A stretch of DNA of 64,000 bases, from positions 372,001 through 436,000 of the forward strand of contig OZ287068.1 of the NCBI GenBank assembly GCA_965645245.1, in the 5' to 3' direction. Origin of the DNA: Massalongia carnosa (lineage: Eukaryota). Positions 7,880 to 59,181 of this stretch are shown here, in pieces. Each line of letters starts with the position of its first letter. Position 1 is the first letter of the stretch. Under the pieces are notes generated by a model. It was given only the letters and a program-made list of their open reading frames with translations. It was not told the origin of the DNA and did no database searches. A program made the translations under genes and the position numbers.

Positions 7880-9066
7880 CTCAAACGATACTGGTAGGTT
7901 TGAATGATGATAGAATATGAGAACTGCGAAGGAGCTAGGTTTTGAAAAGCTGCATTTAGCAATGGAAGGAGAAGGTGATGGCCAGTTCGAAGATGATTAA
8001 ATAGAAAATAAGAGTGAGTGCGATAAAGGTTGAGGTTCACGCTCAATAGGCTTCAAGTTGACGTAAGTACCCGGTAGTATTCTTTCTAGTTAAAGAAAAC
8101 AAGCTAAGCGCTCTTGACGCATACAGTAGGCTCCCGAGCTTGGGTGTCATGCCCTGCTCTTGAGCCGGCTTGTTCTGTGTCTTCCAATTCCAAACAATGT
8201 TTGTCGTTTTAGAGACGATAGACCTGGATTAAGAAGGATATACTCCCGGGGTTCATCCACGTACGCCCCGCTGTGTAACCTTTCACCTGTTCATTCAACA
8301 ATTCAATTTAGATATTCACTTCGCTGTTCATTTCGCTATTCGCGTAACTGAAAGGGAATTAGCAAAGCCAGTGATAGCGCATGGAATAGATGGCTCAATG
8401 GCCAGACAATGGAAGGGCCGCGGGTTAGATGGCTAAATGACCAGACTGCTGGACCAATGGATGGGTAGCTAAATGAATAGCTATATCCGTTACCCAGATT
8501 TGATGTATCATTGCCTGGCTCAAACAAAACGATATCATCCTATATAACAATAAGCGCCATCCTTGGCTTTGATTTCAAAACGGCCGCAAGAATATGCGCC
8601 ATTCTCCTAGCCACTTCATTTTTCTGAATTGAGAAGTGCCCACCCGTGCGCATCTTCCGGGTGATACCATACGCCTAAGAAAAATTGGAGCCTTCTCAAA
8701 GGAGGGCGATGTGGGAATTTCGCTGCTCGTCATACTCCTAGGGTTTGTTTAAGACATTGTGGGAGCAAGGAATGCTTTGTCCTCTTCCTTCTCAGGAGTG
8801 TCTAGGGTGACAAGAGGAGTAAGGTGAGTTTTCGGTAGAGCAAAATTATGTCTAGCAATGAACGACAAAATTTTAGTACTCTTGTATAAAAGTAGGAAAC
8901 TTAAATGTTAAGATTCCATCAAGAAAATCTTTTAGAGGCAAGGCCCTGATACAAAAAAGCCAGGATGTCGACTTCTGACTCAACATAGGCGGATCTATCC
9001 TCACTGAAAATAAAGTCCATAAACTACTTTCGTTCTCGATCGCTCCATGATATTAATTTAGGACTA

Positions 9067-10933: not shown

Positions 10934-13676
10934 TCAAGCCTTACTCCTCTTCGATTTCTTTTTTACCGACTTCTCCATCGTCTCCACCCCGTCGTCATCC
11001 CTCTTCCGCTTCTTCTCAGAACTCGCGTCACCGTTCGGCTTTAAGTCTGCCTTTTTCAGTTTCTCTGCCGCCCTCCGTGCCTTTTTGATGTCCTTCTTGC
11101 TTATGGCTACGGGCTTGCCCTCCGCCTCGAACTTAATCTCACCTCTCTCAAGTTTTCTTTTGTATCGGTTGATAGATAAGCCTGCCTGCTTCGCAAGGTC
11201 CCTGAACTGACGGTCATCCCGCTCCTCTCTCCTTTCAATCTGCTCGGCTCGCTTCTGTCTGCGCTCCTTTCGATCCAGCCTACGCGCTAACTTGGCTTTC
11301 CGAATCTGACGTTGCTTGCTACGTTCCTCGGACATTGCTAATTTACGCTCATGTCTCTCCTTCTTTCGTGCTTTCTTTGCGATTTTCGTATTACCTAAGA
11401 TGGATGATTGCCAGTTGGTTTCCTGCTGGGTAGGCGACGGGGGCGAGTCTGGGGTATCTGCGGAGACGGTGGAAATTGTCTCGGATTTGTCATCATCACC
11501 ATTTGCAGTAACCCCGTTGGTCGTACCGCCATTGGTAATTAGGGCATCTGAGGCTTCTACTTCCTTAGATGATTTCGACCCTTCCGCTTTGGATGATGAA
11601 AACCCATGTAGTTTTTTTGATGCTGGCGCCTCTGCATTTTTAGAAGGTTTTGACGGGATCTTCGTCTCTTCTTCTACTTCGGAATCATCATTCCCCGAAC
11701 TTTCCTCACCAGAGCTCTCTTGATCCTCAGACTCTACACCTTCTTGTACAGCTTCGAGCATATCGGAGTCACTCTGGTTGTCCTTCTTCAGCTGCTGACC
11801 GACAGGTACAATATCCTCCTCAATGACTTCAATCATGCTGACGTCAACCTGCTTATCTTTCTTAGGATTCTTGCTGACGGGGGCTGTGGCTTCTTCGACC
11901 GCCTCAGCCGTCTTGACATGGCCCTTTTTGTCCTTCTTCAATTTCTTGCTAACAGGCGCTACAGCTTCTTCTACAGCTTCAGCCATCTTGACGTCGCCCT
12001 GGTTGTCTTGCGTTGACGTCTTTCTAACCGCCGCCGCCGCCGGTTCGTCACCAGTCAATCCATCAGCGTCAGGATTATATTTTCGCGCTTCCTTGACTTC
12101 CCACTTTCCTGGGGTAACTGATACTCCGTTTGGAGCGATGTTGACCCCCTTCGACCGGAGTGGTCTTCCTTCTAAACCAGCCAATCTTCGCTCAATCTTC
12201 AATCGGTTCTCCACACCGAGCGCAGACTTTTCTTCTTCCGTAACCATATCTCCTTTACCCTCACCTTCGGCACTCCAATCCGCAAGTGCATCCACACGTA
12301 AACCGAGGGTGGCCTTCGTGGCTAACATTCGTGCAATCTTTCCCTTATTCTTCCCGGTAGCTTGCCCGATTAATGATGCGTGGTAGATGAGTCCGTATTT
12401 GGGAGTATCATGCTTGGTTTTAAGAGCCCTGAAGAGTGCCTTCTCTGCGCCAAGAATCTGGATGGTGCTAGCAGGACTTTTTGCAAGGTTCATCAGGCTT
12501 CCAGCATGTGCTATTAACCGAGCACCAACAAGCTCACCTACTAAGGCGGTCAAATTGGGAGCGATAGCCGCCATTCGTGCTGACAGATAGCCCGATAACT
12601 GAGAGCGATAGTCGGTGAAGCCCACAACCTGTTCAGCAAGCGCTTGAATATTGGCCAAATCCTCGGCCGTGATCTCGGTACCCATCGAAACTTCTGCAGC
12701 AGACTTGACAGCATTCTCGATTTCTTCGGGAAGAATCTCGGCAAGATCTGTTTTGGCTGCGTTGGTCCTCATTCCCATAGTAAGGATGACTCGGGCGTAG
12801 GCAAGGTTGTCATTCACGATGCGCCCCATTTCTGGAAAGTGCCAGCCATACCACTCCTTTACACGCATTGCGTAGGTATTCAGCTCTTTGTCCAGGTCAT
12901 CCAGAAGAGATATGGCTTGTACAATCATGGTGTCGACTTTATCAGGGGAGAACTTGAGTTTATGCCTTGATAGCGAATGGGATAAGCCAAGCGACATAGT
13001 TGAGATGTCTTCGGGGAGGAGTCCGGGAATCAAGGAGGGGAGATGGTTGCGTATAGAGCGATATAGATCCGTGGTTGTGGCATCGGAGATGAGGTTAAGG
13101 GAGAGCTGAGGAAGCTTGTTGATCGCATTGGCTGACGAGGTTATCAGCAATTGCACTGTAATTATGGTAGACATAAAAGTACCAAGTTTGGGGTCAGCTA
13201 CGGCTAGAGACGCCTTTTTTTCATCCTTTATGGACTCCAGCAAGTTCGCCAAACGAGGCGTCACCTTTCCCTCGATCAAGGCGGCGGTTTGTTCCAGTGC
13301 TGTACAAAATCAGCCTTTGATTGTTTCACTGGTATGCTTGAGACGGACCGGTAGCTGCACTATCGAATTTGTGGAAGTCTTTCAATTTTAACCTGTAGAA
13401 AACCGAATCTGATCAGCATCCAAGCCCAACGCAGATTGATCATATAACACCAATCCCACACAGAGAAATGACGCCATAGCAGAGGGGACTGAAGACGTAC
13501 AGACTACAGATACCCTCAACAGTATCATCTTCTCCAGAAAATCCGTCAGGTTTCAGAACCTTGGAGGTTTTCGCCTTCAGGAGCGCGTACCCGACAGGAG
13601 TTTCTCTATGATGACATTAGCGTGTTAATCTTTTACAGTTGCAGTGACAAACATACTGTAGAATAAAAAGACCCAT
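10934..13676 (-). CDS. NOP58: Box C/D snoRNP core protein Nop58 with an unusually long C-terminal tail
   Basis: Starts [17 protein letters not shown]; contains [54 protein letters not shown] and [28 protein letters not shown]; four short 5' introns. Confidence 0.96.
11732..12010 (-). repeat. 75-bp (25-aa) degenerate tandem repeat, about 3.5 copies, in the NOP58 tail
   Basis: Units: [25 protein letters not shown] / [25 protein letters not shown] / [25 protein letters not shown] / [12 protein letters not shown]. Confidence 0.85.
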
Positions 13677-13903: not shown

Positions 13904-15217
13904 ATGGAAGGCTTGTTCTTCAACGTTAACGGCGGGTAAGGACCAAGCCAGCATTTTATAACCTAGACTTGGATGAATACTAACTACTTAGCTTCGTCGA
14001 AGGTATTGTCCGAGGATATCGAAATAGCTTATTGACAGGACAAAACTACAACAACCTGATTCAATGCGAAACCATCGATGGTATGCATCCCTACCCAAAA
14101 CCTCTCACCTCCTTCCTAACCGACCTCAGATGTCAAACTGCAGCTATCCCCCGCCTATGGCGACTTCCTTGCCTCTCTCCCTCCCAATCCCTCAACCTCC
14201 TCTCTCGCCAACAAAACCACTGACAAGCTCGTCGCCGAATTCCGGTACCTCCAAGCCCAAGCAACCGGCTCCCTGGCCAAGTTCATGGAGTACCTGACGT
14301 ATGGGTACATGATCGATAACGTAGCCTTACTCATAACCGGCACCCTTCACGAGCGCGACACGCGAGAATTGCTGGAACGCTGCCACCCGCTCGGCTGGTT
14401 TGAAACGATGCCGGTGCTATGCGTCGCTACAAATATTGAAGAACTTTACAACTCCGTGTTAATCGAAACGCCGCTGGCGCCGTACTTTAAAGGTTCGCTA
14501 AGCTATCAGGACCTAGACGAGCTAAATATTGAAATTGTGCGTAATACGCTGTACAAGAACTATCTGGAAGACTTCCACCGCTTCGTGACCGAGCACCCGG
14601 ATCTCCGAGGGACGCCTACCGCAGAGGTCATGTCCGAAGTGCTCTCCTTCGAAGCCGACCGCCGCGCCATCAACATTACGCTTAACTCCTTCGGCACCGA
14701 GCTTTCGAAGCAGGATCGACAGAAGCTATACCCCGAGTTCGGATGGTTGTACCCGGAAGGAACTCTGATGCTCTCGAGGGCCGACGACGTTGAAGGTGTG
14801 GCGTTGGCCGTCAGCGGCGTGCACGACTACAAATCGTACTTTGACGCCGTGGGCATGAGCGGCGGCGGCATGGGCGGTGCGGGACCAGGGAACATGAGCG
14901 GCGGCGGCGGAAGTGATGGAAAGAGCTTAGAAGATATGTTTTATCAGAAGGAGATGGAGATCTCGAAGGGGGCCTTCACGCGGCAATTCACGCTCGCCGT
15001 CATTTACGCATGGGTCAAATTGAGGGAACAGGTAACGAAAATTTCCTTCTTCTTCTTCTTCGTCCCTCCTTACTCTTTCCCTTTCCCATGGTTAAAAGCC
15101 GAGAAATGGCACTAATCAACACCCGGACGGCAGGAAATCCGGAATATCACCTGGATTGCGGAATGCATTGCCCAGCACCAGAAAGAGCGCATTGGAAACT
15201 ACATCAGCGTGTTTTAA
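13904..15217 (+). CDS. VMA6: V-ATPase V0 subunit d, 4 exons
   Basis: [40 protein letters not shown]|...[18 protein letters not shown]...[17 protein letters not shown]...[33 protein letters not shown]. Confidence 0.97.
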
Positions 15218-22510: not shown

Positions 22511-23885
22511 TCACCTAAGTGGCAACAGATACACAAGTAGAGCATAGCCTAGCGGAACAAACACCGAAGCTATTATCTAGACTTGAGAGCTAGAGAAATC
22601 ACAAATTAACGCAAATTGGAGGAAGAGCTCGACTTTAAAATTTAAGTTAATAAGAAAGTCAGAAGATCAGACATAAGTGCTCATCAGGCATGGAATCCTA
22701 TCATCGCACTTATGAACTTAGAGTTATGAAAACATGGGTGAGGTTAGCCTCATGGATTCTTTAAGTGAAGGACCAGGAACGGATACCACTTTAAAACCAT
22801 TGGATGCTGGGAATGGCAGCAGCAGGGGTTTGCCTAGGTGCCTGAAACCCGCCATAGCAACAAACTTTTCACCGCCACGGTGCTCTTATAAAAGTTGGTT
22901 AGCCTCTTAAAAGATATAAGAGAATATCAGATTCTGCTGCCCATATCGTTGTAACAGCTGTCAGTCTCTTATGCTTTGAGAGGGCTAAAATCTTTTCCCA
23001 TCCTATGAAACCGTGCGGGCCTTGACTTAATTTACACTTGAAACTCTTTTCGAGCCCGTCCCGAATCGTTAAACCCATCGGTTCATTGCTAGGCTCAATG
23101 ACGACAGGTCCAGTGTTTAAAATAGGAGGGATGGATGGAGAATGATGGACCCAATGCACAGAAAATAGGTGGCAGAGTGCCAGAAGTCTCTGGATAGTAC
23201 AGAACTTCTATGAATGAAATAATTCAGATTATTGCGACTGATCTCTAAGCTACATACTAAGCCGAACCCTGATCTGGTCGAAAGATGAACGCAATCAGGG
23301 CAGTAGAACCAGGGATCGAATACTATGGAAGCTCGATGAGAAAGGTCGTGTCAAAATCCCACAGACCCAAAACCGTAAGTTTTCACAGCGGCGAGAATAC
23401 CACAAAAATACTGTATCAGAGGAGTTCGTTTCGCGACCGTAGGGGCTAAAGGCGGTGTTTTTAACTTATCTTACTTCACGTGAGGAGAGAGGCAAGCATA
23501 TTAACAAATGGGAGATAAAACATATGGCTCTCAAGATCGCCAGTTAATCGAAACAAGGAATATATAAAATGTTGCTAAATCTCAAAGCGGTAAACTAGCA
23601 TGAGATAATCGATTGAAAAAACTGAAGGATTGAGATTGCTTTTTGCTTTTGGAGTTATTAAACAAAGATTGTTAGCAAGTACGGAGTACGGAGGGTGGAG
23701 GCACAAACCCCGTTGTATATACACTAACTGTATACAGTTAGCCCCATCTGGTTTGTTTACTTTCTCAACATCACGAACTCCAACCAATGATCAACACCCA
23801 AATCTTCTGAATGCGACCAAGCTGTGGAACCTGAATGCTCCAAATGATTTTCATTTCATCTTGAACACTGCTGCCATTCTCCATC

Positions 23886-26800
23886 ATGGACAGCGGCAAT
23901 GAACTAGTCTCATCACCAGATCCTCTGGCCGGAAATGAAGAAAACCTTGGAGCTTCATCACCATGCAAGAAAAGCTATGAGCAACTTAAATCAACGCCCA
24001 AGAAGCCTTTAGCGGATACAAGTAGTAGTGCGCGATTTCAGAGACTTTACATCACAACGCCGCTAGCCTCCGAGAATTGCAACGCCTCTCCTCTTAGATT
24101 GATCGCGGAAGCCGATAATCCGGCTAGTCCATGGCGAGTTCGTGTGACGGTAGAAGCGCAGCAAGAAGGGAAAGGCAAAAGTGCTAATCTATGGAACGCA
24201 CCTTCTAAAAGTCGTCTCGCCGAACGAACAGTTACGACAACGGTGCCTTTGAAGGATGGCGATGGCCAGTCCTCAAAGAAAATGCGGGGAAGACCTAGGA
24301 AGTCGCTGGATACTCCTCTGAAGAGATCTGGAACATTGAAGCCGAAACCAGTTGGATCGGCAGAAAAAAAAATCACGTCTGTTAACATTGGAGCGAAGGA
24401 TGACAGCTGTCAATCTTCAACTCCAGGACGGAGAAAGGCAGGCAGGCCAAGAAAAAGCTTGGAGCGCTTTACTGAAGGATCCGAGGCGCAAACAGAGGAC
24501 AAAGCGCAGAGAGCCAGCATGCATCAGACGAATAACAAAATAAGCTTGGAGAAGACGGGAGCTAAATGCACAAGAAGTTCGGGGAAAAGAAAGGCTGTTG
24601 TTCCTGAGAAATTTGATCTCCATTCTGCTCCTAGCCTAGAATCCACTCGGCATGTTCGAGAAAGACAAATGGGTAAAGATTACCTTGAAGGTATAGCGGA
24701 TTGTATGAATGCTCAAGCCGACCCGCATTTCGGCTCGCCTGACCCAACAGGCGACCATGCAGAATATGATTCCATACTTGAGAGTGAAGGCTTTAGTATG
24801 GTATCTGTCTCCTCGCTTCCATCGGCAAAACTGCACTCAAGTAGCGCGCTTCAACCTACCCTTAATGGCAAGGACACTATGTCAAATAAAGGAGGCGTCT
24901 TATCCTCATCAATTTTGAGCTTAGATTCGTCGACTTTAGATATCCGGAATGACTTACAGCAACACCACCAGAACCTTCAAACAACAGCTTCATCTGATTC
25001 CTCCTCGTCCATGGCTTTACAGCAGCTACCAATTACCCAACCACATAATACCCCTTTTATCATATCCACTACAAATTCAGTCCCACCATTGGCGAGGCCC
25101 TTAGCTCCACCACCATCTTCTCGACAGCTAGAAGAAGCTACTGATGGCACACCGAAAATCGACCGAGTTGTGCGAGCAGGGGTTGCGTTGCAGGGAGCAC
25201 TTAGTCCTTCAAGTGGAAGCTCCAAGGCCAGAGATGGAGCGCTGCAAGAGTATAGTAATTCTTCCGCTTCGACAGCGGAAGTATCCAAACAGGACACAAA
25301 AGATTTATTCAGCGGCTTCGGAGCGGGTACAAGGCGAGAACTGAGGGCTGGGTTAAGACTTGGAGAAGAGCTTGCTAAGAAAGAAGAATATTTAGAGCAG
25401 CTGAGACGCGTTAATTCCAAATCAGAAGATGATGTTTTTAGCCTAGAGTCATTAAGCACTCGGCCAAAGAGTAGCGTGAACTCAGGATATAGCCTCAAAT
25501 TACCAAGAACAGATTCAACGCCCTTATACCCCTTGCTCTCAAACAGTCAACTGCCAAGTCCTGAAAGAAGTGAAGAAGAAGACTGTGATGACGACCGAAT
25601 GAGTTGGAAATATGACACTTTAAGAAACACCGAAATCACAGCCATCCAGAGCGAGGGGCTGTCTAGAAACAATGAGGCATCAGTAGAGGTTGCTTCTAAC
25701 TTCGAAGGATCGACCATGGCTCGAGAGGAAGAAGAATACCGACTTGAAAGAGTAGCTGTGAGCAGACAGATTGAGATGGCAAACTCTAGCCAAGTCATTG
25801 TAATCCATAGTGATAGTGAGAATGATGAGTACGAAAGCGACGATGATGAAGGCAACGACATATGGCAGGAGCAAGCTCATTCAAGTGATGCTGTTTTTAA
25901 GCAGGAGACGGAAAGTTCTTTCCAGCTTTTTCAAACCCAGGTTTCTAAGCCACGTCGAAGCCAGATACCCAGTCCTTGGCGGCGGCATAACCCTATCACT
26001 ACAGCCACTCAGAAGGTTACAAACGATACGGACCTGTTTTGGCAACCAAGCCTAATGGTCAACTCTGCTGCTGCAGGCAAGGAGACTCTCAACGATGTTG
26101 ATTGTATGGATTCTGTGCCTCAGACTTCTTCAGAAAAAAGCATTGTACAGGATAATGATGTTAATGGCAGCAGCAGATCCTTGTGTGGACAGGAGACTAT
26201 TCTCAGTAGCCCCGACCAAGGCAGTAAGCATGTGCTACAGAAAATTAATACTGGTATAAGCCAGGAAAACGTGCTTCTACCAGATGGATTGAACAACGAA
26301 GATAATGAAAGCTGGAAGTCGTCCATCCACGAAACCGTGGACAGCCAAGAGTATACTCCACACGAATTTACGAATGAAATCGATTCGTCATTCACTCAGG
26401 CCTCTTCAGAAGCTGTTACTTTGGAGAAAACTGTTGATCTCGTTTCAATCACGAAAAAAATAGAAGCCGTCTCTTGCACAAACCTTATCGACATAGAATC
26501 CAGCACAAAGAAAACAGAACCGATTATCCTCCAGCCTACACCAGCTACATCAACATCTTCTGCATCCTGGTTCGGTTACCTTGCTAGTTTCATCCCTATT
26601 CGGCGCGATGCCCCTTCAGCCGCTCCAGCCGCTCCAGCCGCAGCCACTTCATTCCGCCTTCCTAACGGCAAGACGAAGCTCTTTCGATCGGGTTGTTCCG
26701 AAGGACCTCTCTGCCTGTACACGCCATGGACCGACGATCACTATGACGCGCTCTATTTCCACTACGCGGCCTGGAAAGAAGGCCGTAGACGGTACAAGTT

Positions 26801-27116
26801 CAACCGCAAGAGTCCATCGGCGCCGTTCGTCGGGGAGGTGATTCGATGGAAGGGTTGGGAAAAGCCGGTCACGAAGGAAGAGGTAGCGGTGGTGGATGCA
26901 TTCATGATTGACTTGGGGCGGCGTGGGCATGCAGAACGTGCAAAGGGAGGGAGATTGATCGATGACAAGATGGTGCGGTTTTATCTGTTCAAGCTTTGGC
27001 GCGGGGGAGTGCTGCGCGGGGAGTGTGAGGTCGGCATTGGGAAGACGGGGTGGGCGGAGAATGGCAAGGAGATGTGGATGCCAGAGATGGAAGATTGGTA
27101 TCAGGGGAACCAATAG
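23886..27116 (+). CDS. Large, mostly disordered fungal protein with two AT-hook motifs
   Basis: Intron-less 1076-aa ORF; RGRPRKS and AGRPRKS AT-hooks; short conserved-looking islands SPWRVRVTVEA, ESEGFSMVS and FSGFGAGTRRELRAGLRLGEEL; folded W-rich C-terminal region. Confidence 0.8.
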   Translation: MDSGNELVSSPDPLAGNEENLGASSPCKKSYEQLKSTPKKPLADTSSSARFQRLYITTPLASENCNASPLRLIAEADNPASPWRVRVTVEAQQEGKGKSANLWNAPSKSRLAERTVTTTVPLKDGDGQSSKKMRGRPRKSLDTPLKRSGTLKPKPVGSAEKKITSVNIGAKDDSCQSSTPGRRKAGRPRKSLERFTEGSEAQTEDKAQRASMHQTNNKISLEKTGAKCTRSSGKRKAVVPEKFDLHSAPSLESTRHVRERQMGKDYLEGIADCMNAQADPHFGSPDPTGDHAEYDSILESEGFSMVSVSSLPSAKLHSSSALQPTLNGKDTMSNKGGVLSSSILSLDSSTLDIRNDLQQHHQNLQTTASSDSSSSMALQQLPITQPHNTPFIISTTNSVPPLARPLAPPPSSRQLEEATDGTPKIDRVVRAGVALQGALSPSSGSSKARDGALQEYSNSSASTAEVSKQDTKDLFSGFGAGTRRELRAGLRLGEELAKKEEYLEQLRRVNSKSEDDVFSLESLSTRPKSSVNSGYSLKLPRTDSTPLYPLLSNSQLPSPERSEEEDCDDDRMSWKYDTLRNTEITAIQSEGLSRNNEASVEVASNFEGSTMAREEEEYRLERVAVSRQIEMANSSQVIVIHSDSENDEYESDDDEGNDIWQEQAHSSDAVFKQETESSFQLFQTQVSKPRRSQIPSPWRRHNPITTATQKVTNDTDLFWQPSLMVNSAAAGKETLNDVDCMDSVPQTSSEKSIVQDNDVNGSSRSLCGQETILSSPDQGSKHVLQKINTGISQENVLLPDGLNNEDNESWKSSIHETVDSQEYTPHEFTNEIDSSFTQASSEAVTLEKTVDLVSITKKIEAVSCTNLIDIESSTKKTEPIILQPTPATSTSSASWFGYLASFIPIRRDAPSAAPAAPAAATSFRLPNGKTKLFRSGCSEGPLCLYTPWTDDHYDALYFHYAAWKEGRRRYKFNRKSPSAPFVGEVIRWKGWEKPVTKEEVAVVDAFMIDLGRRGHAERAKGGRLIDDKMVRFYLFKLWRGGVLRGECEVGIGKTGWAENGKEMWMPEMEDWYQGNQ

Positions 27117-31855: not shown

Positions 31856-34800
31856 ATGCCTCGCAAAGCCTTTGTGGCCGATTTACAGGAAGCTATTCGA
31901 GAGTTTGAAAGCGAGAATCTGTCGGATCTGAAGGCTGGAGACGAAGATGGTACGATCACCTTTAAATATCATGGACCCTGTTCGCAAGGCACTACAGTAC
32001 AAGCAATCATTCCCGGTAAGGTAATTCGAATAGATGCGTTAAAAATCATGGATCGATGCTGATAGCATGTGTCATTCTAGACGTTGGGGATTATCCAACA
32101 GATCACACTTACATCCTTTGCACAGCCTCGCAGCATGTACCGGAAAGCATTAGCTTAGCTTTGACAGACATTGGAGAGTTTAACGGCATCAAAGTGTCAC
32201 AGATGCTATCCAAGGTCGTCAAAGTCCTTGACAAGGCTACACAAACGTCTCGCTATGATCTTGACGGTGATATACCGATGATCGATACCGATTCGGAACC
32301 TGAGGAAGAAGACCCAGACAGCCAGGACGAAGAACATGAAGGCCTCGTGTGGTCTCCCCAGTCTCCTCGGCGCCACGCAAATGCCGGTATTGACCCTGCC
32401 TTTTTGCGGCCAGAAGATCGCTCGGTGGTACTAGCTCTTAACGACAGAATACGAAGAGATCTCCGGGCCGTAAAGACTGCTGGCTTTCGTGTTGGTCATC
32501 TTGGTGTTCTCATGAACAATGGCCAAGATGCATTTGTTACCGTTTCCTGCCGCGTGGCAAAGTTAGGGATCTCCGAGGAGGCATTGCAAGCATGGAATCT
32601 TGATCCGTGCAAGTACTTCCTCCTCATTATCCGTTACACAGCTGGTTATCGATCGATGGAGCGCCTCATGGCGGATGAGACATTCGGAGCCAAAACCACG
32701 GAAATACGTGTAGGGCTCAGCCAGAGCTATAAGATTCAGCTTGGACAAGCAATTGATGCCTTCAGTCACTCCCGGGGCGGGAGCAAGGAAACAGAGTCCA
32801 GTGAGCTACAAAATGGCCAAACGCTCAAGGATCGAGGTCTCGATCCACTTTTCATAGCCAGACCCCTCGAGGAGCTTATAAACGATCGTCTTATTGCGCT
32901 CCTGAGATACAGAACTGATCAGGGGCTTCCTTGGGGCGGAGCAGAGGAATTTTATAACGATCATCAAGGCCGCAACGTTCAGGCTGTAGATGCATCGGAT
33001 GCCAAGTACTGGGCTCCAGACGACTCCAACCTTGCTAAAAGTCTGCCCGCTCTCGTTACCTCAGATCATCTCACCCAATGTACGAGTGAGTGCTCATTTC
33101 CGCTGCTTGCTATGCAGTTTGCACTTCGACACCTCGTTAGATGCACGGAATTCTGTCTTGTGTGCCACTGCAGGGTAGAGGCAGACTTTGAGGCGTTGAA
33201 GCCTTATGTATGCTCCAAGCCGCTTTGTCTTTATCAATACATGGCTCTAGGTTTTGGGCCAAGCATAGAACACGAAATCGTCTCGCAGCCTCATGTGGTA
33301 GACCTTCTCGTCAGCTTTTGTTATTCTAGCTCTTACCATCACAAACTCTCCAGTCTTCCGATCGGAATGGGCCTTAGCGTACCACAACCTTCGCTGATGC
33401 CAAACTGGGCACCACCCAGCGATAGGAATTCATATATGCCATTTCCGCCTCTGGGGGCAAAAATCCCCGCCGTAGACCTTGGCCACACCACCGTTCAGCA
33501 ACCTCCTTCTATGGCGCTGGCTTCGGCAACTCCAACAAAACGCTCAGTGAGGCTGGATCTAGTAAAACTGGAGCTTATTTTCCCTCCTGGAGTTAAAACT
33601 CTCCGTGTAGGTCAATGGATTTATCTCACAGTTAAGTCGGCTTCGGAAGAGCGATTCCACTGCCGAGTAATTGAAGCAATGCATCCTACCGTCCGGTTAG
33701 GAACGCCGGTTTTACGGACTTGTGTCGATAGATACGTGCATCGAGCCTCTGTGAGCGTTAAAGATTCCCGCAGTTTCGACGGAAAATCTAGTTCACTTCC
33801 ATATCAGCCTCCATGCAATCGTCCCGGACTAGGATCAGATTTTACACCAGCTGCAACCCCTCCACCAGGTGAAATTTCCTCTCAATGCGATGCTGAGTTC
33901 ATCATCTACGACCAGAACTTTGATGACCTTTCCGATTGGGACAAGCAATATGCAATCTGCACCTTGTTGGAGACATTGCCTAGCGTCAAGCAGATGAAGG
34001 ATTTCTTGCAGTGCAAGACCGGCAAAGACACGTCACTCCGTGCCTGGTCCGATCGAATATCCCCTGCGGCGTTAGGTGTACTTCGATGGATCATTGCATC
34101 AAACCGATCCTGTATCATTCAAGTTGACAATATTAATGGAGATGCCAGCAAGTCGGAGGAGAGGGTGTCGGGTATGCCGCAGTGGATGCAGTTTCGATTT
34201 GCCCAAGGAGCCCCAGACAAGGAACAGAGGTTTGTTATGTCTGTGCGGCAAGAAGCAAACAACCTGTCGTACCCCACATTGTTCGCCTGGCATGGGAGCC
34301 CTTTGCACAATTGGCATGGAATCGTTCGAGAGGGCCTGCACTTTCAACATACGGCCCATGGACGAGCCTTTGGGAACGGTGTATACCATGCACTTGATGT
34401 CGCGACGAGTATAGGGTATTCCGGAGGACTTGGGCGCGTACACCATCAGTACTCTATCGAGCAGCAAAGCATCAATGCTGGAGAGTGGCCGCAAAGCCAA
34501 CTGAGGATAACAGACGCGGTTGCCTTGAATGAAATCGTCAACGCACCGGAGCGGTTTGTAAGCCGAAGTCCTCATCTTGTGGTAGCGCAATTGGATTGGA
34601 TTCAATCACGCTACTTGTTTGTAAAGTGTCATCTAACTGAACCAGTCGGGCAAGAAACGCCTCCAACTCAAGCATATGCGCAAGACCCAACTTGGACCCC
34701 GTTAGGGGTGTGTTGGGAGAAGATCATTATTCCCATCACAGCCGTGAGCAAATCTAGGCGGCCGGTAACGAAACAGATCAAGAATGGAAACAAAAGGGCA

Positions 34801-35627
34801 AAGGTGCACATAAATGGTGGATTAGAGTATGATGACGCAATTGTTCTTAGCGATGATACCGATGTCGACGATGTCATTATGTTGCTCTCGGATGATGAGT
34901 GTCTGCTGCCACCTCAAAGCCAGGCTTCGCAGCATGTTCACAATGTCCCCAAGACAGACTTCATACCTGGCGCGCTCGATCATGACATGCTACCTCTACT
35001 TCCCCCGCCGGCATACGCAACGTCAATGGCTACCAGGTCCCTACAGCGGGAATTAAACAACACGTTGCAGATACAAAACAGCCATTCAGCCCACGAATTG
35101 GGATGGTACATCGACCCGGAACTTGTTGAAAACGTGTATCAATGGATTGTTGAGCTCCATTCATTCGAACCCCATTTACCCCTTGCAAAGGACCTGGCAG
35201 CGAAAGGCCTGAAGAGCGTAGTTCTTGAAATCCGCTTTGGAAAGGATTATCCCATTAGTCCGCCCTTTGTCCGAGTCATTCGTCCGCGCTTCTTGACTTT
35301 CCTGGCCGGCGGTGGAGGCCATGTCACCGCTGGCGGTGCTTTGTGCATGGAGCTTTTGACCAATTCTGGGTGGAGTGCAGTGTCGAATATCGAGTCCGTG
35401 TTGCTACAGGTTCGATTGGCTATATCGTCAACGGATCCGCAGCCGGCTCGGCTGGAGCAGGGGCGCGTGGGGGATTATGGGGCAGCGGAAGCCGTGGAAG
35501 CTTTCTTACGGGCATGCCACGCTCATGGGGTAAGTGATCACAACTTCCAATCGAGATGTGAAACTAATGGAAGAAAAAGTGGGAAGTCCCAAAAGATTTT
35601 AGATCCACGTTTTCCGCTTCAAATTGA
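31856..35627 (+). CDS. PARP6/8-like mono-ADP-ribosyltransferase fused to a C-terminal UBE2Q-type ubiquitin-conjugating (E2) domain
   Basis: Start MPRKAFVADLQEA; introns 32016-32080 and 35530-35579. C4 finger CLVCHC...KPYVCSKPLCLYQY; ART motifs FAWHGSPLHNWHGIVREGL and GRAFGNGVYHA; E2 motifs YPISPPFVRVIRPRF and GGHVTAGGALCMELLTNSGWS. Confidence 0.9.
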
Positions 35628-37688
35628 CGTTGTGATGGATGACATTGGTCTCTAGCCGATGCTGTTTTCTGAAGCACGTTCGATCACAGTAAAAACGACG
35701 CTCTCGCATGAGCAAGTTAAAACACAACAACAAGTTGAAAGAATGGTATTACGAAGGAGCGCTACGATTGAAGTTGTTTCTCGGTTCTCGGGTTCTCAGG
35801 GTTCGGTACATCCACGCGCAGTACCTGGAGAAAAATAGGTCATGTCTCGATTGCCAACAGGAGGGCGGGGGCTATTCATTGTAGCTGGGCCTTTATATTT
35901 TAATGCTCAAAGCACGGGTTATTTTCTAACCCTTTTCGGTCCGTTAAGCATGAGGAGGGTGGGGGAAAGGGCGAGGAGAGTGAAATAGTGATGGCTGTTG
36001 TGAAATCAGGTACTAAGAGATGGCTTGCCTACCTACCTACCTACCTACCTACCTACTTCCCTCTTGGGAAGCGTTCTACATCCGACACGCTGCTATCGCT
36101 ATTGTTATTATTTTTTTGTTGGTGTCATGAAATAAGATTCCGCCCTTCCATTTTCGTTGACTCTAACATCCATCCACCTACCACCTTCTTCTTCGGCTTT
36201 CCCCTCCTCCCTCTCCACCTCCCTCGGAGGGAATTTCCCCCTCTTACACACATTCATCCATTGAGTCTATATCCCTCCCCCCGGTCAACTTCCCCTATCA
36301 TCTTCCCAAAACAACGTTCCTTCCTAAACCCCCCCCCCCCTTACCACAACCTAAAACTATCTATGTACTTGTTGTACCATCCTATCCCCATCCCGTATCG
36401 CCGTTCCACTCCCCTCTCCTGCCCTCGAGTTCCCGCGCCCCCCTGGGGGCGCGGGGGCGAACGTGTGAAGGTTGAGAGGTGGAGAGGATGGGAGTGCAAG
36501 GGAGGGAGAAGGGGGCGTGGGAAAGTCAGAAAGAGAGAGAAAGAAAAGAAAGAGGAGAGGTGAACACAATCGAAAAAGGGGGGACTTTATTTTAGTTACG
36601 GAAGAGCGAATGGGGTGTGAATTATTTAGAAAATTCGAAACTTGGGGGGGAAGGGGGGGGGGTTGCCGCTGTATTAAGAAAACCAGGAAACGGGGAAAAG
36701 AAATCCCGACACATAAAATTTGGGGGATTGCCTGAAATGCCGAAGAAACCAAACCAAACCAAAACTTCTTGTCCGACGGATTTTTTTCCGTTTCAGGCAC
36801 GTTGGTTCTTTCTTTTTGGGAGGGGGGAAGAAAAAAAAAGAAGAAAAAAAAAGGGGGGGAGAGAGAAGGGAAGAAAGGAAAAGAATGACGAGGAGATCGA
36901 TCGTATCGTATCGAAAGAAAGATGACAATCTTCCTCTTATCAATCTCTTTTCTTTTCTCATTTCTTTTTCCCTTGGAGAAATTGCTATTGTTGGAAAATA
37001 AAACACGGAGAAAGAATGAAATGAGATATACAAGGTTCAAAGAATTATCTCAAGACTAGGTTGAGGCTGAGGTAACCTTTTCGCTCTCCAGACACGAAAA
37101 AAAAACCCTTTCATACTCGTTCTTGTCTTGTTTATGTTTGTTTGTTCGTTTGAATGGAGTCACCCCCCCCTCGCTTTCTCTTCTTCCTCACTTGCTCATC
37201 TTAACCTATCTATTCCTTGCAAAAGGCGGCGGAGGGTGTGCGAACCGATAATTCAGTAGGAGGAGTGAATACCTAAATATCGAAAAGGATGACAGGTAGA
37301 GCCGTGGAGGAGGCATTAATTAGTCGATTTGATATTAAACTGTGACCAAGAGAAAAAAAACTATCTGAGGAGGTGTGGCAATAATGTGGAGCTGTGTGGA
37401 GAGAGAGAGAGTGTGAGATAGAGAAAAGAGTGCGAACGAGAGGATGATGGATAGTTTTGATAATTCCACGGCACAAAGAAGGTAGAAGTTAAAAAAAAAA
37501 AGGCGAAAGTTACGCCAGAGGGTATCCATCCATCCAACCAACTAGTAAAACCAAACGAGAGAAACCAAGCAGAAAACCTAATCTTCCCTAATTTTACCTT
37601 CGCATTTTAGAAAATGTCGTCCTCACAAATACCCCGTTCACCCCCAAACGAAGCACCGCCTTCGACCAATCAAGCCTCATGGCAGATC

Positions 37689-38861
37689 TTAAATATTCTC
37701 AATCACCCTCGCGTTCATGGCCTGCTGGAAGCCATCGTTGGCGTCGCCGCCAAAAGGTTGGCTCTTCGACCCATGACTGCTCGGCCCCTCGCCGTACGCG
37801 TCCGCCGTGGCCAACTGCTGCTGCACCGTCTGGTTCGTTCCGGGCAGGAAGATGACTTTGCTGTTGGCCGTCTTGGCCATGGCTTGCATGGCCTCCAGAT
37901 AGCGGATCTGCATCGCGGGCGCCGAGGACAGGATGTCCGCCGCCTGCCGCATCAGCTTGGCCGACTCCACTTCGGCGCGGGCGGCGATGACTTTCGACTC
38001 GCCGATCCGCTTCGCCTGCGCCGCCATGCTCAGGGAGTCCTGCAGCTCGGTGCTGAAGATGATGTCCTTGACCAGCATGCTCTCGACCTGCACGCCCCAT
38101 CCCGATGCGACCTCCTCGATGATTTCGCCAATGGACTGCGCAATCTCCTCGCGGCGTTCGATGACGTCTTGCAGCACGCGGGCTCCCACGACATGCCGCA
38201 GGGTGGTCTGGGTGCGCTCGACCAGGGCTTGGCGGATGTTGGAGATGCCGAAAGCGGCCTTGTGGGGGGAGATGATGTGGTAGTAGATCACGGAGGTGAG
38301 GTGCAGGTTGACGTTATCTTTGGTCATGCACACTTGCTTTGGCACCTCTGAGCAAATACATTAGCAGGTTTGGCTGATTATGCAAGCGAGGAGGAGAATA
38401 CGCACCAACGATCTGAATCTTGACGTCGACTTGGATAAGCTTTTCTGATAAGGGATTGATTTTGACGAGACCTGGATCCACGGCGCGGTAAAAGCGCCCG
38501 AACTTGGTGACAAGGCCAACGTTGCCCTGGTCCACAGGTTTGTATGGATTCGGGCAAACGACGCAGCATGGGATGGCTCCTAAGCACCCAATACACGATC
38601 CGAGCGCGTTGACTGCAACGGTGTAAGCGGAAAAAGAAACGATCATGTGGGCAGGCTTATCGTACTCATCGACCCATACCATCCATGTGATCCCGCGTCC
38701 TCGCTTTCGCCCTGAAGGATTTGCGCATAGGCTGGCTGAAGATCTTCTCTTCGCGGCGGTTGCACGTTGATCAAGGTATTGCCCGCTGGCCCCGAGCCTC
38801 CATTGTGAAAGCCATTTGTCGAAGCCGAAGATTTCCCGTTATCGAGTGGTGCAGATCCCAT
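37689..38861 (-). CDS. Stomatin/SPFH (band 7) family membrane protein, 3 exons
   Basis: GAIPCCVVCPNPYKPVDQGNVGLVTKFGRF; MTKDNVNLHL; TTLRHVVG; WGVQVESMLVKDI; AADILSSAPAMQIRYLEAM. Confidence 0.93.
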
Positions 38862-46971: not shown

Positions 46972-47518
46972 GGCCGACGATTAGATCCCTCCTCAACTAA
47001 ATAGCGTTATGAAATGAATAAATAGACATGTACTTACAGGAAAGGCCTACCGCACTCGTTTTCATCCAACCAATTACTAAGCGTTCAAACTGCGACGAGG
47101 GGCTGTTATTCTGTACGTGGATTATCGCTTAGCGCTAGTTAATGTGCGCGCGGAAAGCTTCTGACGTCATGCGAATAACCGTTAAATATTACCGTACGGA
47201 GAACTCGGTACAAAGTGGAAGTCGTAACTTATGTAATGCTCTCCAACAACTTACCAGTGCCTCCATGAGGCACAAATCGTCCAACGGACGGCCTACGCTT
47301 ATTACATGAAACATCGTAGTTAGTTATGGGTAGAGAGGATCCTACTCATGCCTTCCTGAGTGGTTTGCCCTCAGTCGTTTCCCGCTCCTTCATCTCCGCC
47401 GTCGGTTGCTGCCTATTCGTTGGTGCTCTCTCGATTCCTGGTTCAGTCCTTTTCTCTATTTCGTGAACGTATTCACTCATTCCGGACGCAATCGCTCACA
47501 GTGCATACTCGCAACGAA

Positions 47519-48934
47519 ATGTCCTGCCGGCCTGCCAGAACCCATGATGCAGCATATCAGGAATATCACCACAACTCGCAAGGCAAACGGGTCAACACCG
47601 ACTCGGTGATTGTCGAGACCCTCCGGAAACAATACCCCAACCTATACCTAGCCATTGCCCCGTTGTACAATTGCGATCTCCTGGGCTACACGTCGTCGGG
47701 TCAGGCTCAAGCCGAGCCGTTCAAGGCCGAGGATGTGGCCTCGGAGACACTTAAATGGAGGTGCTACACCCCCCCTGCACGACGCATGGATGGATTGCCA
47801 GGCTTCCTGTATGACCAAATCAAATTCGGCAAATACATCTATACATGGAAGGATCAAGACTATATCCTGTACATTGTCAACGATGGCAAAGCCACGTATG
47901 AAATCGACATGAGCTACCTGCTTGGCTCCACTAAAGAATCCGCTGAAGCACTACTCCTTGCCGCTGGCGAATACAGCAGCAAGCTGCATGAACAAGTCTT
48001 TGTTTACGATGGTGGCTACTGGCAAAAATCGCACGCGATGTGGGAAAGCGTGCAGGACTCGCGCTGGGAGAACGTGATACTCGACCCGGATATGAAAAAA
48101 TCCCTCATCGCCGTCGTCGATACCTTCTTCAATTCGCGAGAAAAATATAGCAAGCTAAAGGTGCCGTGGAAGCGGGGAATTATTTACTACGGCCCCCCTG
48201 GCAACGGGAAAACCATCTCTATCAAAGCCATGATGCACATGCTATCCGAGCGTCCCGACCCAATCCCTACGCTGTACGTCCGCTCGCTCGCCTCGTACAT
48301 GGGCCCGCTGGGGGCCATCATGGAGATCTTCGCCAAAGCCCGGGAAACGGCCCCATGCTTCTTGGTATGGGAAGATCTTGATAGTATCATTACCGACTCC
48401 GTGCGCAGCTACTTTCTCAATGAGGTCGACGGACTCAAGAGCAACGATGGCATCCTCATGCTCGGCAGTACCAACCATCTCGATCGCTTGGACCCGGGAC
48501 TCGCCAAAAGGCCTAGCCGCTTCGATCGGAAATATTTCTTTCCGAACCCTAATCTCGAGGAGCGCGTGCGCTACTGCGAGTTCTGGCGCGCGAAGCTCGC
48601 GGGCAATGACAGCGTGGAGTTCCCTGAGAAGATCTGCCCCGCGGTTGCGGCCATCACGGCGGACTTTAGCTTTGCGTATATTCAAGAGGCCTTTGTGGCT
48701 GCCTTGCTAGCCATTGCTGGAGAGGAAGACGGCGATCACAAGGGGGAGGGCCACTATCACAAAGAGCACGATATCAATCGCGAAGGAACGGATCTAGGAA
48801 GCCAGGATATCTCGGAAGATGATATGATACTCATAAGACACGACACAGACGATGATCTCGAGCAATACGCTCTGTGGCGCCAGCTCAAAGTGCAAATCCG
48901 GATCCTGCGGGATGAAATAAGCAATGCGGACTAG
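47519..48934 (+). CDS. Single-ring AAA+ ATPase (BCS1/YjoB-like fungal family)
   Basis: KRGIIYYGPPGNGKT (Walker A), LVWEDLD (Walker B), FLNEVDG, STNHLDRLDPGLAKRPSRFDRK (SRH with Arg finger); no protease domain; likely start ATG 47519. Confidence 0.9.
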   Translation: MSCRPARTHDAAYQEYHHNSQGKRVNTDSVIVETLRKQYPNLYLAIAPLYNCDLLGYTSSGQAQAEPFKAEDVASETLKWRCYTPPARRMDGLPGFLYDQIKFGKYIYTWKDQDYILYIVNDGKATYEIDMSYLLGSTKESAEALLLAAGEYSSKLHEQVFVYDGGYWQKSHAMWESVQDSRWENVILDPDMKKSLIAVVDTFFNSREKYSKLKVPWKRGIIYYGPPGNGKTISIKAMMHMLSERPDPIPTLYVRSLASYMGPLGAIMEIFAKARETAPCFLVWEDLDSIITDSVRSYFLNEVDGLKSNDGILMLGSTNHLDRLDPGLAKRPSRFDRKYFFPNPNLEERVRYCEFWRAKLAGNDSVEFPEKICPAVAAITADFSFAYIQEAFVAALLAIAGEEDGDHKGEGHYHKEHDINREGTDLGSQDISEDDMILIRHDTDDDLEQYALWRQLKVQIRILRDEISNAD

Positions 48935-56979: not shown

Positions 56980-59181
56980 TCAGCCTGATAAACCAAACCC
57001 TGAACTCCCAACGCTACTCGTCGACTCCCCAACGCTAACAAGGGACTCGCCCGGGCTCGTCAAAAAGGTTGGCCCCAACTCCATATCCTTACGCAAAGGC
57101 CAGTTACTATCTCCGGCCTCAATGAAATCTAGTCTTCGTGGATCCGTACCCAAAGCATGGTTCACCACAGAATCATCGAGTTTTTGAATCTGAATCGAGT
57201 CCGTGCCGAAATAATCTGAGGCGCATTGCTGCGGCGTCCTGGGAAGGTCAAGCTCGTCAGGGTTCTCAAACGCCAAGCCACTGATGACAGTGGAGACGAT
57301 ACTCATGCCTCGCGGGGAGTTGATCGTCTCGCCCGAAGCCCGGATCAGGGTGGAATCGCCCTCCTCGGAAAGTCGCGGTAGCATCGACTCTATTTCATCA
57401 ATGGGGCTGGTCATCAGCTGAATTTCGGCCACCTCGGTGGATCTCAACGGCTGCGACGAATCTACCTGTTCGGCCGGGACGCCCATGCGCGTCAGCTTCG
57501 AGCCCCGACTTAACCACCCCTTGATCCCCGTTTCTTGTGATGATGCAGGCTTTTGGGGGGATGGCCCCATATCCACCCACCCATGTGCTTCTTCCACTTC
57601 CTCCTCTTCCTCTCCGCAGCAATTTCTTCTTCCATAGCCTAAGCCTTTGTCAACCCATCCCCTAATAGCTCTCTCCATATCCCTCGAGTCGATCCGCTCA
57701 TTAGGATCCCTCTTCACCCCCCCTCGGCAAACATCTACAATCCCCCCAACAGATTCCCAGATTCCTTGCTCCCCACGCTTCATATCTTTATGATGCCTAT
57801 TACCCGCTTCCCGACATAACAGGTCCATCCATTTCCACACTTGCGCCAGGTTGACATGAAAGCTTGCATCAGCGGGCGCCCCTCCTCGTCCAGCGTGACG
57901 ATTATGACGGCTGCGATGGGCGGCGAAGGATTTGGGAGAGTGTGAAAGGATGAGGGAGAGAAGGTGCAGGAGGATGGTTGTGAGCGAGAAAATATCGGCG
58001 GGCCCCGATGGAGGTAGTTCGAGACGAGGAGGTGCAAACGTTGTTATGAGAGCTTTTTGGGGCCGTGAATGTGTCGATGAGTTACACGACGATGTGGCGT
58101 CGGATCGTCGCCGTATATCGCCTGGAGACGGGTATGGGTTGAGCGGGCTGCCGGGCTCCGAGGGGAGACGACGAGTAGTACGGCCGCCGCCGGGCAGCGT
58201 GGTGCGCAAAGGCGCGCTTTCATGGAGGGACGGTACGCGAAGCCAGTTCTCGGGAGCGGCGTGGTCGTAGATTTCGCAATCATACGGCGACGGGTTACCT
58301 TCAATGTCGAGGGCCTTGAGAGCGCCAAAATCGTTGAGATAGACGTAGAATTTGTGATCGATGGTAATGGTTGAAGGACGAATGGCTTGATGAGTGAATC
58401 CTTTCTCGTGGAGGTATGCTAAAGCTGAAGTAAGGCAGTGGGTCCATCGTAAAAGAATTTCGCGACGTTGTTGCTTCGGAAGGCTCTTGAACGCCTTGGG
58501 TTGTTCGTCGAGGAACGACTTCAACGTCAGATCCAGCGCCGGTGTTAAAAGTACGTAGCTGAAAGAACTCTTCGTATACGTAGCCCAAATCGAAACCAAA
58601 TGAGGATGATTGATGGCTTGTAAAGCTTTCATGTGCATGACAAATGCATTTCTATCGATCCCATTCTCTCCCGACGTAGATATCTTTTTGCGCGCGTATA
58701 CCCGGTCTTTAATGCAGACGGGGTTGCAGGTCTGAGAGGACGATCCAGCCGATACACGCCGAGCGATTGGCTCCAACGGTAGAACATCATCGTCGCCATA
58801 ATCGACATGACCGCCGGGCTGGAATTCCTGCACCAGGAAGTTGAATTGTTGACGATAGAACTTCTTGTCTAAGGTCTCGGACTTCCCGCCGAACAGGTTC
58901 AGTTCATATAAGACTTCCTCTGATAACGGTAGATCATCATCATCGAAAGTCTTATCGATGATTTCGAAAATCCATTCGGGGCATCCAATGTGATTTAAAA
59001 TCAAAAATATGCGTCGCCCTTTTTGCAGAATCCAATCCAGATAAGTGTCATCGGTCAATCCATCCCCAAAAGCCAATGGACGGTGCAGCGCAGCCTGATG
59101 GGATTCCGTCTGCAATTCTCTTGTGATGTATTCAGCGTCGAATGTGGCATCGATCTTTTCGTCAGACCACCAAGCCGGCAT
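56980..59181 (-). CDS. Protein kinase-like protein, probably a pseudokinase
   Basis: Kinase fold elements YARKKI, HPHLV, LTSALAYLH, HQAIRPS (HRD site), LNDFG, AAPE and ADIFSL; N-terminal LAFGDGLTDDTYLDWIL motif; start ATG 59181. Confidence 0.85.
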   Translation of the reverse strand: MPAWWSDEKIDATFDAEYITRELQTESHQAALHRPLAFGDGLTDDTYLDWILQKGRRIFLILNHIGCPEWIFEIIDKTFDDDDLPLSEEVLYELNLFGGKSETLDKKFYRQQFNFLVQEFQPGGHVDYGDDDVLPLEPIARRVSAGSSSQTCNPVCIKDRVYARKKISTSGENGIDRNAFVMHMKALQAINHPHLVSIWATYTKSSFSYVLLTPALDLTLKSFLDEQPKAFKSLPKQQRREILLRWTHCLTSALAYLHEKGFTHQAIRPSTITIDHKFYVYLNDFGALKALDIEGNPSPYDCEIYDHAAPENWLRVPSLHESAPLRTTLPGGGRTTRRLPSEPGSPLNPYPSPGDIRRRSDATSSCNSSTHSRPQKALITTFAPPRLELPPSGPADIFSLTTILLHLLSLILSHSPKSFAAHRSRHNRHAGRGGAPADASFHVNLAQVWKWMDLLCREAGNRHHKDMKRGEQGIWESVGGIVDVCRGGVKRDPNERIDSRDMERAIRGWVDKGLGYGRRNCCGEEEEEVEEAHGWVDMGPSPQKPASSQETGIKGWLSRGSKLTRMGVPAEQVDSSQPLRSTEVAEIQLMTSPIDEIESMLPRLSEEGDSTLIRASGETINSPRGMSIVSTVISGLAFENPDELDLPRTPQQCASDYFGTDSIQIQKLDDSVVNHALGTDPRRLDFIEAGDSNWPLRKDMELGPTFLTSPGESLVSVGESTSSVGSSGFGLSG

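Follow-up and report, generated by a model that had tools for sequence, protein, structure and literature searches.

What might an ADP-ribosyltransferase (ART) and a ubiquitin-conjugating (E2) enzyme do together on one and the same chain? The question is raised by a gene in a stretch of 64,000 nucleotides (nt) of the lichen-forming ascomycete Massalongia carnosa (GenBank assembly GCA_965645245.1, contig OZ287068.1, positions 372,001 to 436,000 of the forward strand), which was analysed as a whole and is called the window below. An earlier note, made from the sequence alone, had placed this gene at 31856..35627 of the window and read its product as an RWD-like region, a four-cysteine (C4) zinc finger of the PARP6/8 type, an ART domain and an E2 of the UBE2Q type with its catalytic Cys. 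Both the limits and the domain reading stand. The gene is an intact, ordinary orthologue of a fungal family, Clade 6A of the PARPs, also known as PARP-Ubc or fPARP2, and the catalytic residues of both enzymes are conserved in that family.

Gene model and domain architecture

One long plus-strand frame runs from stop to stop over 32020..35655, with short introns near both its ends. The joined coding sequence of the three exons has 3657 nt, keeps its frame, contains a sole, terminal stop and encodes 1218 amino acids (aa). Removal of intron 1 restores the frame together with the family consensus DVxxYPxxH, and the N-terminus (MPRKAFVADL...) fits the consensus MxRKxFxxDL. At the other end, removal of intron 2 joins ...CHAHG to WEVPKDF... 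and drops a read-through tail, in agreement with the consensus HGWxVPxDF; both terminal consensuses hold in alignments of 103 and of 65 sequences. Since the two protein ends match the family in this way, the proposed limits are exact. Residue numbers below refer to P0001, the translation of exon 2 that was used for all searches, unless stated; full-length numbers are those of P0001 plus 54.

A single deposited copy of the exact sequence was found, an unspliced open reading frame (ORF) call of 1199 aa (P0003). Many database gene calls of the fungal PARP-Ubc family read into the last intron and show 'VS..' after ...HG instead of W-x-V/I-P. Such read-through models, the identical P0003 included, are without the conserved Trp that probably matches Trp414 of human UBE2Q1. 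The lesson for annotation is that unspliced calls of the PARP-Ubc gene drop a C-terminal Trp that is essential in UBE2Q1.

The two enzyme domains are recognized by several methods. A Pfam scan of P0001 returned PARP (E = 1.4e-10, 41.4 bits) and UQ_con (E = 9.3e-07, 29 bits), both over their curated cut-offs of 26.7 and 27 bits. When P0001 was compared as a single sequence with the PDB sequences, the matches were UBE2Q2 (1zuo, 2.6e-20), UBE2Q1 (2qgx, 9.6e-16) and PARP16 (2e-3); with a profile of 103 family sequences the values became 1.4e-32, 1.2e-30 and, for PARP16 4f0d, 4e-13. The exon-2 product was then modelled with AlphaFold2 (AF2) from the 65-sequence alignment, whose representatives are 34-69% identical to P0001, with a mean predicted local distance difference test score (pLDDT) of 78.3 and a predicted template modelling score of 0.67. 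The modelled chain consists of an alpha/beta module (110-232), helices up to 352, the finger (354-389), further helices, a beta-rich insert, the ART domain (core about 700-850), a disordered linker (899-955) and the E2 fold (976-1149). A Foldseek search with this model retrieved UBE2Q2 1zuo and UBE2Q1 2qgx with template modelling scores on the target (TMt) of 0.85 and 0.84, both at a root-mean-square deviation of about 2.5, as well as PARP16 (TMt 0.58-0.60); the PARP1/2 structures were weak matches (TMt about 0.3).

Conservation was counted over 150 rows, P0001 and 149 representatives of clusters at 50% identity. All of the 130 rows that are gap-free at six catalytic sites combine the NAD-binding His and Tyr of the ART domain with the Cys of the E2 (130/130).

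A known fungal family

At E<=0.001, 1503 homologues were found among 8000 scored candidates, and PF00644 and PF00179 occur together in all 120 matches listed. Among the named matches listed, the closest are lichen fungi: Sticta canariensis with 68% identity, and Alectoria, Letharia, Lecanora and Teloschistaceae with 54-62%. The library at 50% identity gave 2950 matches at E<=1e-3 and 584 at E<=1e-30.

The earlier note was right that fungal fusions of this kind had been noted in surveys, but it understated how much was known: the fusion family has carried a name since 2010, an annotation of six domains was published in October 2026, and only the orthologue is new here. Proteins of Clade 6A, as defined by Citarelli et al. 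(2010, PMC2964712), have a long N-terminal part with an RWD-like 'FPE' domain; they also carry PfamB_2311, a PARP catalytic domain in which the Glu of the triad is missing and, at the C-terminus, a UBCc domain with its Cys. Perina et al. (2014, PMC4245714) added a Cys-rich motif and reported UBCc fusions in a moss and in Chlamydomonas as well. The name PARP-Ubc is that of a July 2026 preprint, which places the E2 in the UBE2Q subfamily and counts the protein in 322/534 fungal genomes and 256/288 genomes of filamentous ascomycetes (10.64898/2026.07.25.740670). A review of October 2026 calls the protein fPARP2 and lists RWD, 4C* finger, helical extension (with a beta-barrel particular to fungi), ART and UBCc; it states that experiments on activation and on the functions of the domains are still awaited (PMC13720257). 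This published list agrees with the AF2 model and with the domains read in the earlier note, and the window protein shares the whole architecture of the family with no structural difference, its length being 1218 aa against a published fungal family mean of about 1154 aa. The Massalongia carnosa locus itself thus contributes one further orthologue only.

The N-terminal modules

The region 110-356 is predicted to adopt an RWD/UBC-like fold, without a catalytic Cys motif. A separate AF2 model of 110-445 (pLDDT 82.4) was aligned by VIA-align to 48,161 PDB representative chains. The RWD domains 2dax (Z = 5.9), 2daw (5.5) and 2day (5.1) and the RWD of GCN2 (4.9 and 4.5) appeared at ranks 1, 4, 10, 16 and 27, mixed with rows of E2, UEV, FANCL and kinetochore-RWD proteins. 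Every Z-score is under 8, so that the model lends moderate support to an RWD/UBC-like fold in 110-445. The models cover the full-length protein from about residue 113 onwards, beyond exon 1 and the start of exon 2. A profile-profile comparison by hhalign, of the two N-terminal regions against the E2 of the chain and against one another, gave nothing significant (probabilities 0.1-1.5%), and the likeness to RWD domains is one seen by fold.

The finger that follows (C358-x2-C361-x15-C377-x4-C382) is better defined, as its four Cys are invariant in the 103 and in the 65 aligned sequences. It satisfies the pattern CX2CX9-19CX4C that was described for PARP6/8 homologues (Perina et al. 2014, PMC4245714). 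In an Atlas look-up with 255-445, a PARP6 cluster scored 0.83, which is to be taken as a lead only. Further on, the AF2 model has helical stretches (395-418, 618-673) as well as strands of pLDDT about 90 (487-539, 601-608). Compared by description, this modelled extension and barrel agree with the 'HE with fungal-specific beta-barrel insertion' of the literature (PMC13720257).

The ART domain and its third triad residue

The triad of the window protein is H-Y-H, with H737 in AWHGS, Y768 in GNGVYH and H831 as the third residue. The third assignment relies on a published alignment and on a strand of the model, the HMMER alignments to PARP16, PARP2 and PARP1 ending upstream of H831. In Additional file 11 of Citarelli et al. 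(2010, PMC2964712), column C3 holds Tyr in PARP16 (PKYFVV) and Ile in PARP6 and PARP8 (IWVC/IWVV), and in the fungal Clade 6A rows it is the first residue of HLVV/HYVV. The window's SPHLVVAQLDWIQSRYLFV is near-identical to the Pyrenophora and Alternaria rows of that alignment (HLVVAQLDWIQTRYLFV), HLVVAQLDWIQ(S/T)RYLFV being common to all of them, and H831 directly precedes the strand 832-834 in the AF2 model. The proposal in the earlier note that a His occupies the position of Glu988 of PARP1 is thereby supported.

The alignment across orthologues that the earlier note had called for shows that the first two residues hardly change (His at 737 in 147/150 rows, Tyr at 768 in 146/150, the remainder being gaps), and the same applies to the pocket (G738 147, S739 147, S776 139 and Y779 144 of the 150 rows). 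The third column is variable: H 97, Y 21, F 12, C 5, I 3, N 1, T 1, R 1 and 9 gaps, with Glu in 0/150. Among 120 close relatives it holds only H (106) and Y (14), and the 18 fungal Clade 6A rows of the 2010 alignment have H 11, Y 2, I 2, F 1, V 1 and C 1. His is therefore the commonest state of the family and no peculiarity of the Massalongia carnosa gene.

A poly(ADP-ribose) polymerase proper, with an H-Y-E triad like that of PARP1, was considered and rejected: His replaces the third Glu, WGR and PARP_reg were not found by Pfam at E<=0.1, and the PARP1/2 fold match is weak. According to the October 2026 review, triads without Glu imply mono-ADP-ribosylation (PMC13720257), as the earlier note had maintained; its remark that biochemical characterization was wanting also agrees with that source. 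The triads given there for mono-ARTs are H-Y-[ILY], His not being among them, and the preprint quotes H-Y-Y for PARP16 and H-Y-I for PARP6/8 (10.64898/2026.07.25.740670). No paper that names an H-Y-H triad in a PARP came up in a literature search. The third-position His is thus visible in a published alignment, and a discussion of it was not found in the literature.

The UBE2Q-type E2 domain

UBE2Q2 and UBE2Q1 are the best structural and profile matches of the C-terminal domain, and in the alignment to PDB sequences the segment around its Cys1088, GGALCMELLT, agrees with UBE2Q2 in every residue. The Cys is kept in 137/150 rows (12 gaps and one Thr). The His-Pro-Asn (HPN) motif is absent: phmmer aligned the F-H-P-N of the canonical E2 2aak to F-L, a 7-residue insert and G-H. 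Human UBE2Q1/2, which have an N-terminal RWD domain, transfer ubiquitin to Ser, Thr, glycerol and glucose and act poorly on Lys; their activity requires Tyr343, His409 and Trp414, only Tyr343Phe being tolerated (Abdul Rehman et al. 2024, PMC10971424).

Profile alignment makes it possible to follow these residues into the fungal protein. The His409 column corresponds to H1148, a His in 132/150 rows. The Trp that opens exon 3 comes after Gly1149, where spliced relatives show W-x-V/I-P, and it probably matches Trp414. The Tyr343 column corresponds to H1080, with His in 126/150 rows, Asn in 8, Arg in 1 and 15 gaps. This His in place of Tyr343 is a fungal-specific difference of the active site. H1080 also occupies the position of the Asn in the canonical HPN motif, and Asn is what the 8 rows carry there.

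The conservation of both sites bears on the possibility that one of the domains has no catalytic function and serves as a scaffold or reader, the ART domain only binding NAD+ or ADP-ribose, or the UBC fold only binding partners. Inactivity is known for some PARPs that lack the Glu, PARP9 among them (Citarelli et al. 2010, PMC2964712); several residues occur at the third triad position of this family; and RWD domains are themselves UBC folds without catalysis. Nevertheless, representatives only 34-69% identical to the protein keep the residues of the NAD+ pocket and the Cys of the E2 almost invariably, which makes dead sites unlikely, and a scaffold role for either domain seems very improbable.

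A proposed pairing of two activities on one target

The interpretation that we favour, with a confidence slightly better than even, is that of a bifunctional enzyme, a mono-ART joined to a hydroxyl-preferring E2 without HPN, in which both act on the same target by way of the RWD and finger modules. The ART domain would bind NAD+ through His791, Gly792, Tyr822, Ser830 and Tyr833 (full-length numbering, as in the rest of this paragraph) and transfer ADP-ribose to its own chain or to a substrate that it binds, in single units because the third triad position is His885 and holds no Glu. An E1 would charge the E2 on Cys1142, and the ubiquitin would probably be discharged onto a hydroxyl rather than a lysine, since HPN is missing as in human UBE2Q1/2; an E3 would perhaps not be needed. 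The RWD-like and zinc-finger modules most likely hold the substrate. With both catalytic domains on one chain behind such modules, both marks would then be placed on the same target.

Several points weigh against this interpretation. The family is widespread and has two enzyme domains, yet the passages of its literature report no measured activity of any member (PMC2964712, PMC13720257). Given the range of residues at the third triad position, catalysis may not depend on which of them is there. The hydroxyl reactivity of UBE2Q1/2 is not simply transferable, because the Tyr343 column is a His in the fungal protein and Tyr343Phe is the only replacement reported as tolerated. In the model, a disordered linker of about 55 residues (pLDDT below 50 at 899-923 and 941-955) joins the E2 to the ART domain, and a contact between the two is not indicated. 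Finally, the two introns and the expression of the gene are deduced from splice signals and homology.

The marks could also be joined to each other, a sharper form of the writer of coupled marks that the earlier note had inferred. In that case, the ART domain would write mono-ADP-ribose and the E2 would, in cis, esterify Gly76 of ubiquitin onto a hydroxyl of its ribose, yielding ubiquitin-ADP-ribose (Ub-ADPr) without a DELTEX-type E3. The chemistry has precedents: UBE2Q1/2 put ubiquitin on sugars by ester bonds (glucose and glycerol, and for UBE2Q1 also maltoheptaose; PMC10971424), and Ub-ADPr esters are made by DELTEX E3s (PMC12203941). The fungal E2 retains the equivalents of His409 and, probably, Trp414, the near-invariant His at the HPN-Asn position could serve as a base on the hydroxyl, and ART and E2 stand on one chain in all of the complete rows. 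Yet ADP-ribose and NAD+ are absent from the nucleophiles named for UBE2Q1 in the passages of PMC10971424, Pfam finds no DTC or other ADP-ribose-binding domain beside the E2, and the long flexible linker fits independent action equally well. We therefore regard a hybrid mark as unlikely. If it were true that the E2 ubiquitylates ADP-ribose or nearby hydroxyls in cis, the family would be able to set a dual mark without an E3.

Alternatively, the coupling could be regulatory and the substrates not shared. The ART domain would then be an NAD+-dependent switch for the E2, through automodification or NAD+ sensing, or the E2 would mark the protein for turnover. PARPs commonly automodify, and this general knowledge speaks for such a switch. 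So does the autoubiquitylation of UBE2Q1 on non-lysine residues, which is the subject of a section title in PMC10971424. The large conserved body made of RWD, finger and helical extension resembles a platform for binding substrates or partners more than a simple switch, and we consider this explanation quite unlikely in comparison with the bifunctional enzyme acting on one target.

Likeness to animal proteins

The part of the protein that precedes the E2 resembles human PARP6/PARP8 (Suskiewicz et al. 2023, PMC10450202) in the C4* finger CX2CX9-19CX4C, the split RWD, the helical extension and an ART domain with H-Y and a third residue other than Glu. The human proteins differ in their third Ile and in having no E2, whereas the fungal protein adds the beta-barrel insert and the UBE2Q-type E2. 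This link to PARP6/8 rests on the published alignment, the finger motif and the Atlas lead. PARP16 (PDB 4f0d, 6hxr) is the closest solved ART structure and shares the helical extension, but its third triad residue is Tyr, it possesses a transmembrane helix, and RWD, finger and E2 are all missing from it.

UBE2Q1 and UBE2Q2 share with the fungal protein the segment at the Cys, the lack of HPN, the equivalents of His409 and, probably, Trp414 and an RWD placed N-terminally to the UBC domain; they differ in Tyr343, whose place is taken by His in the fungal protein (Asn in 8/150 representatives), and in that a whole PARP6-like module is lodged between RWD and UBC in the latter. The spacing of the conserved His and Trp is HGW in the fungal protein; in UBE2Q1 it is presumably HEKNGW.

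The DELTEX E3s and the PARP9-DTX3L pair may be functional analogues, as they combine an ADP-ribosyltransferase with ubiquitin transfer to a hydroxyl of ADP-ribose. DELTEX systems carry RING and DTC domains; the ubiquitin enzyme of the fungal protein is instead an E2 on the same chain. RING, DTC and ADP-ribose-binding domains gave no Pfam match in P0001 at E<=0.1. The identification of the protein as a DELTEX-type Ub-ADPr ligase was consequently rejected, the likeness being at most functional.

The fusion invites a broader, 'Rosetta stone' reading by analogy: the fungal protein would form an E3-free ubiquitin ester on ART-written mono-ADP-ribose, and animal PARP6/8 and UBE2Q1/2 would be partners in the same chemistry. 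RWD domains are present in animal PARP6/8 (PMC10450202) and in UBE2Q1/2 (PMC10971424). A link between PARP6/8 and UBE2Q1/2 was not found in print among the papers listed, which were partly judged from titles and the beginnings of abstracts. This reading is quite unlikely; if true, it would also provide a function for the poorly understood animal proteins.

Linker motifs, neighbouring genes and feature coordinates

The linker region with its conserved motifs spans 34780..35010 (900-976). The family form of the basic motif, K-x-G-x-K-K/R-x-K-V, is similar to a nuclear localization signal. The acidic stretch, rich in Ser and Thr, ends in ED-x-x-x-L-L and has the look of a SUMO-interacting motif or of a phospho-dependent one. 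The third motif, TDFxPGxLDxxxLPxLxPP, sits immediately before the E2 fold. All positions are collected in Table 1.

Table 1 Features of the PARP-Ubc gene of Massalongia carnosa and of its surroundings (positions in the window; residue numbers of P0001; domain limits partly predicted)
Feature	Position	Strand	Details
Full gene	31856..35627	+	three exons, 1218 aa
Exon 1	31856..32015	+	ATG at 31856; 53 codons and first base of split Asp codon; start of N-terminal RWD-like region
Intron 1 (putative)	32016..32080	+	65 nt, GTAAGG donor, CTAG end, CTGAT branch-like site
Exon 2	32081..35529	+	P0001 = translation of 32083..35529, 1149 aa
Acidic insert, predicted disordered	32254..32406	+	58-108, AF2 pLDDT below 50
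RWD/UBC-like fold with helical additions (predicted)	32410..33150	+	110-356; AF2 and fold search
C4 zinc finger, PARP6/8 type	33142..33249	+	Cx2Cx15Cx4C; Cys codons 33154-56, 33163-65, 33211-13, 33226-28
Helical extension and beta-barrel insert (predicted)	33265..34149	+	strands 487-545, 601-608; disordered loop 546-598; AF2
ART (PARP catalytic) domain	34150..34776	+	H737 34291-93, Y768 34384-86, H831 34573-75; pocket G738, S776, Y779
Linker, mostly disordered	34777..34959	+	three conserved short motifs
Basic linker motif KNGNKRAKV	34780-34806	+	recurs in 65 aligned sequences
Acidic Ser-rich linker motif EYDDAIVLSDDTDVDDVIMLLSDDE	34825-34899	+	recurs in 65 aligned sequences
TDFxPGxLD...LPxLxPP motif	34954-35010	+	starts in linker, continues into E2 part; recurs in 65 aligned sequences
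UBE2Q-type E2 (UBC) domain	34960..35529	+	Cys1088 35344-46, H1080 35320-22, H1148 35524-26
Intron 2 (putative)	35530..35579	+	50 nt, GTAAGT...AAAG, CTAAT branch-like site
Exon 3	35580..35627	+	WEVPKDFRSTFSASN plus TGA (35625-35627); opens with conserved Trp codon 35580-82
AAA_11/AAA_12 helicase, ZNFX1-domain and CCCH-finger matches	4019..7993	-	three adjacent ORFs, Pfam
Nop domain (Nop56/58-like)	10934..13306	-	Pfam
V-ATPase subunit d (AC39)	14120..15112	+	Pfam
1083-aa open frame	23865..27116	+	no Pfam match at E<=0.01
SPFH/Band 7	38314..38835	-	Pfam
AAA ATPase	47360..48931	+	Pfam
Protein kinase	56980..59184	-	Pfam
FAD-binding monooxygenase fragment	61979..62842	+	Pfam

An antisense ORF of 158 aa, counted from its ATG, lies inside the ART coding part (34099..34575, minus strand). 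It has no Pfam match and is most likely a chance frame. By Pfam, none of the neighbours in the window is tied to ADP-ribose or ubiquitin. The role in stress or defence that the earlier note had suggested found no support, the neighbours being unrelated genes of a housekeeping type by the same search. The three adjacent minus-strand ORFs with helicase, ZNFX1-domain and CCCH-finger matches are probably exons of one helicase gene of the ZNFX1/NFX1 type.

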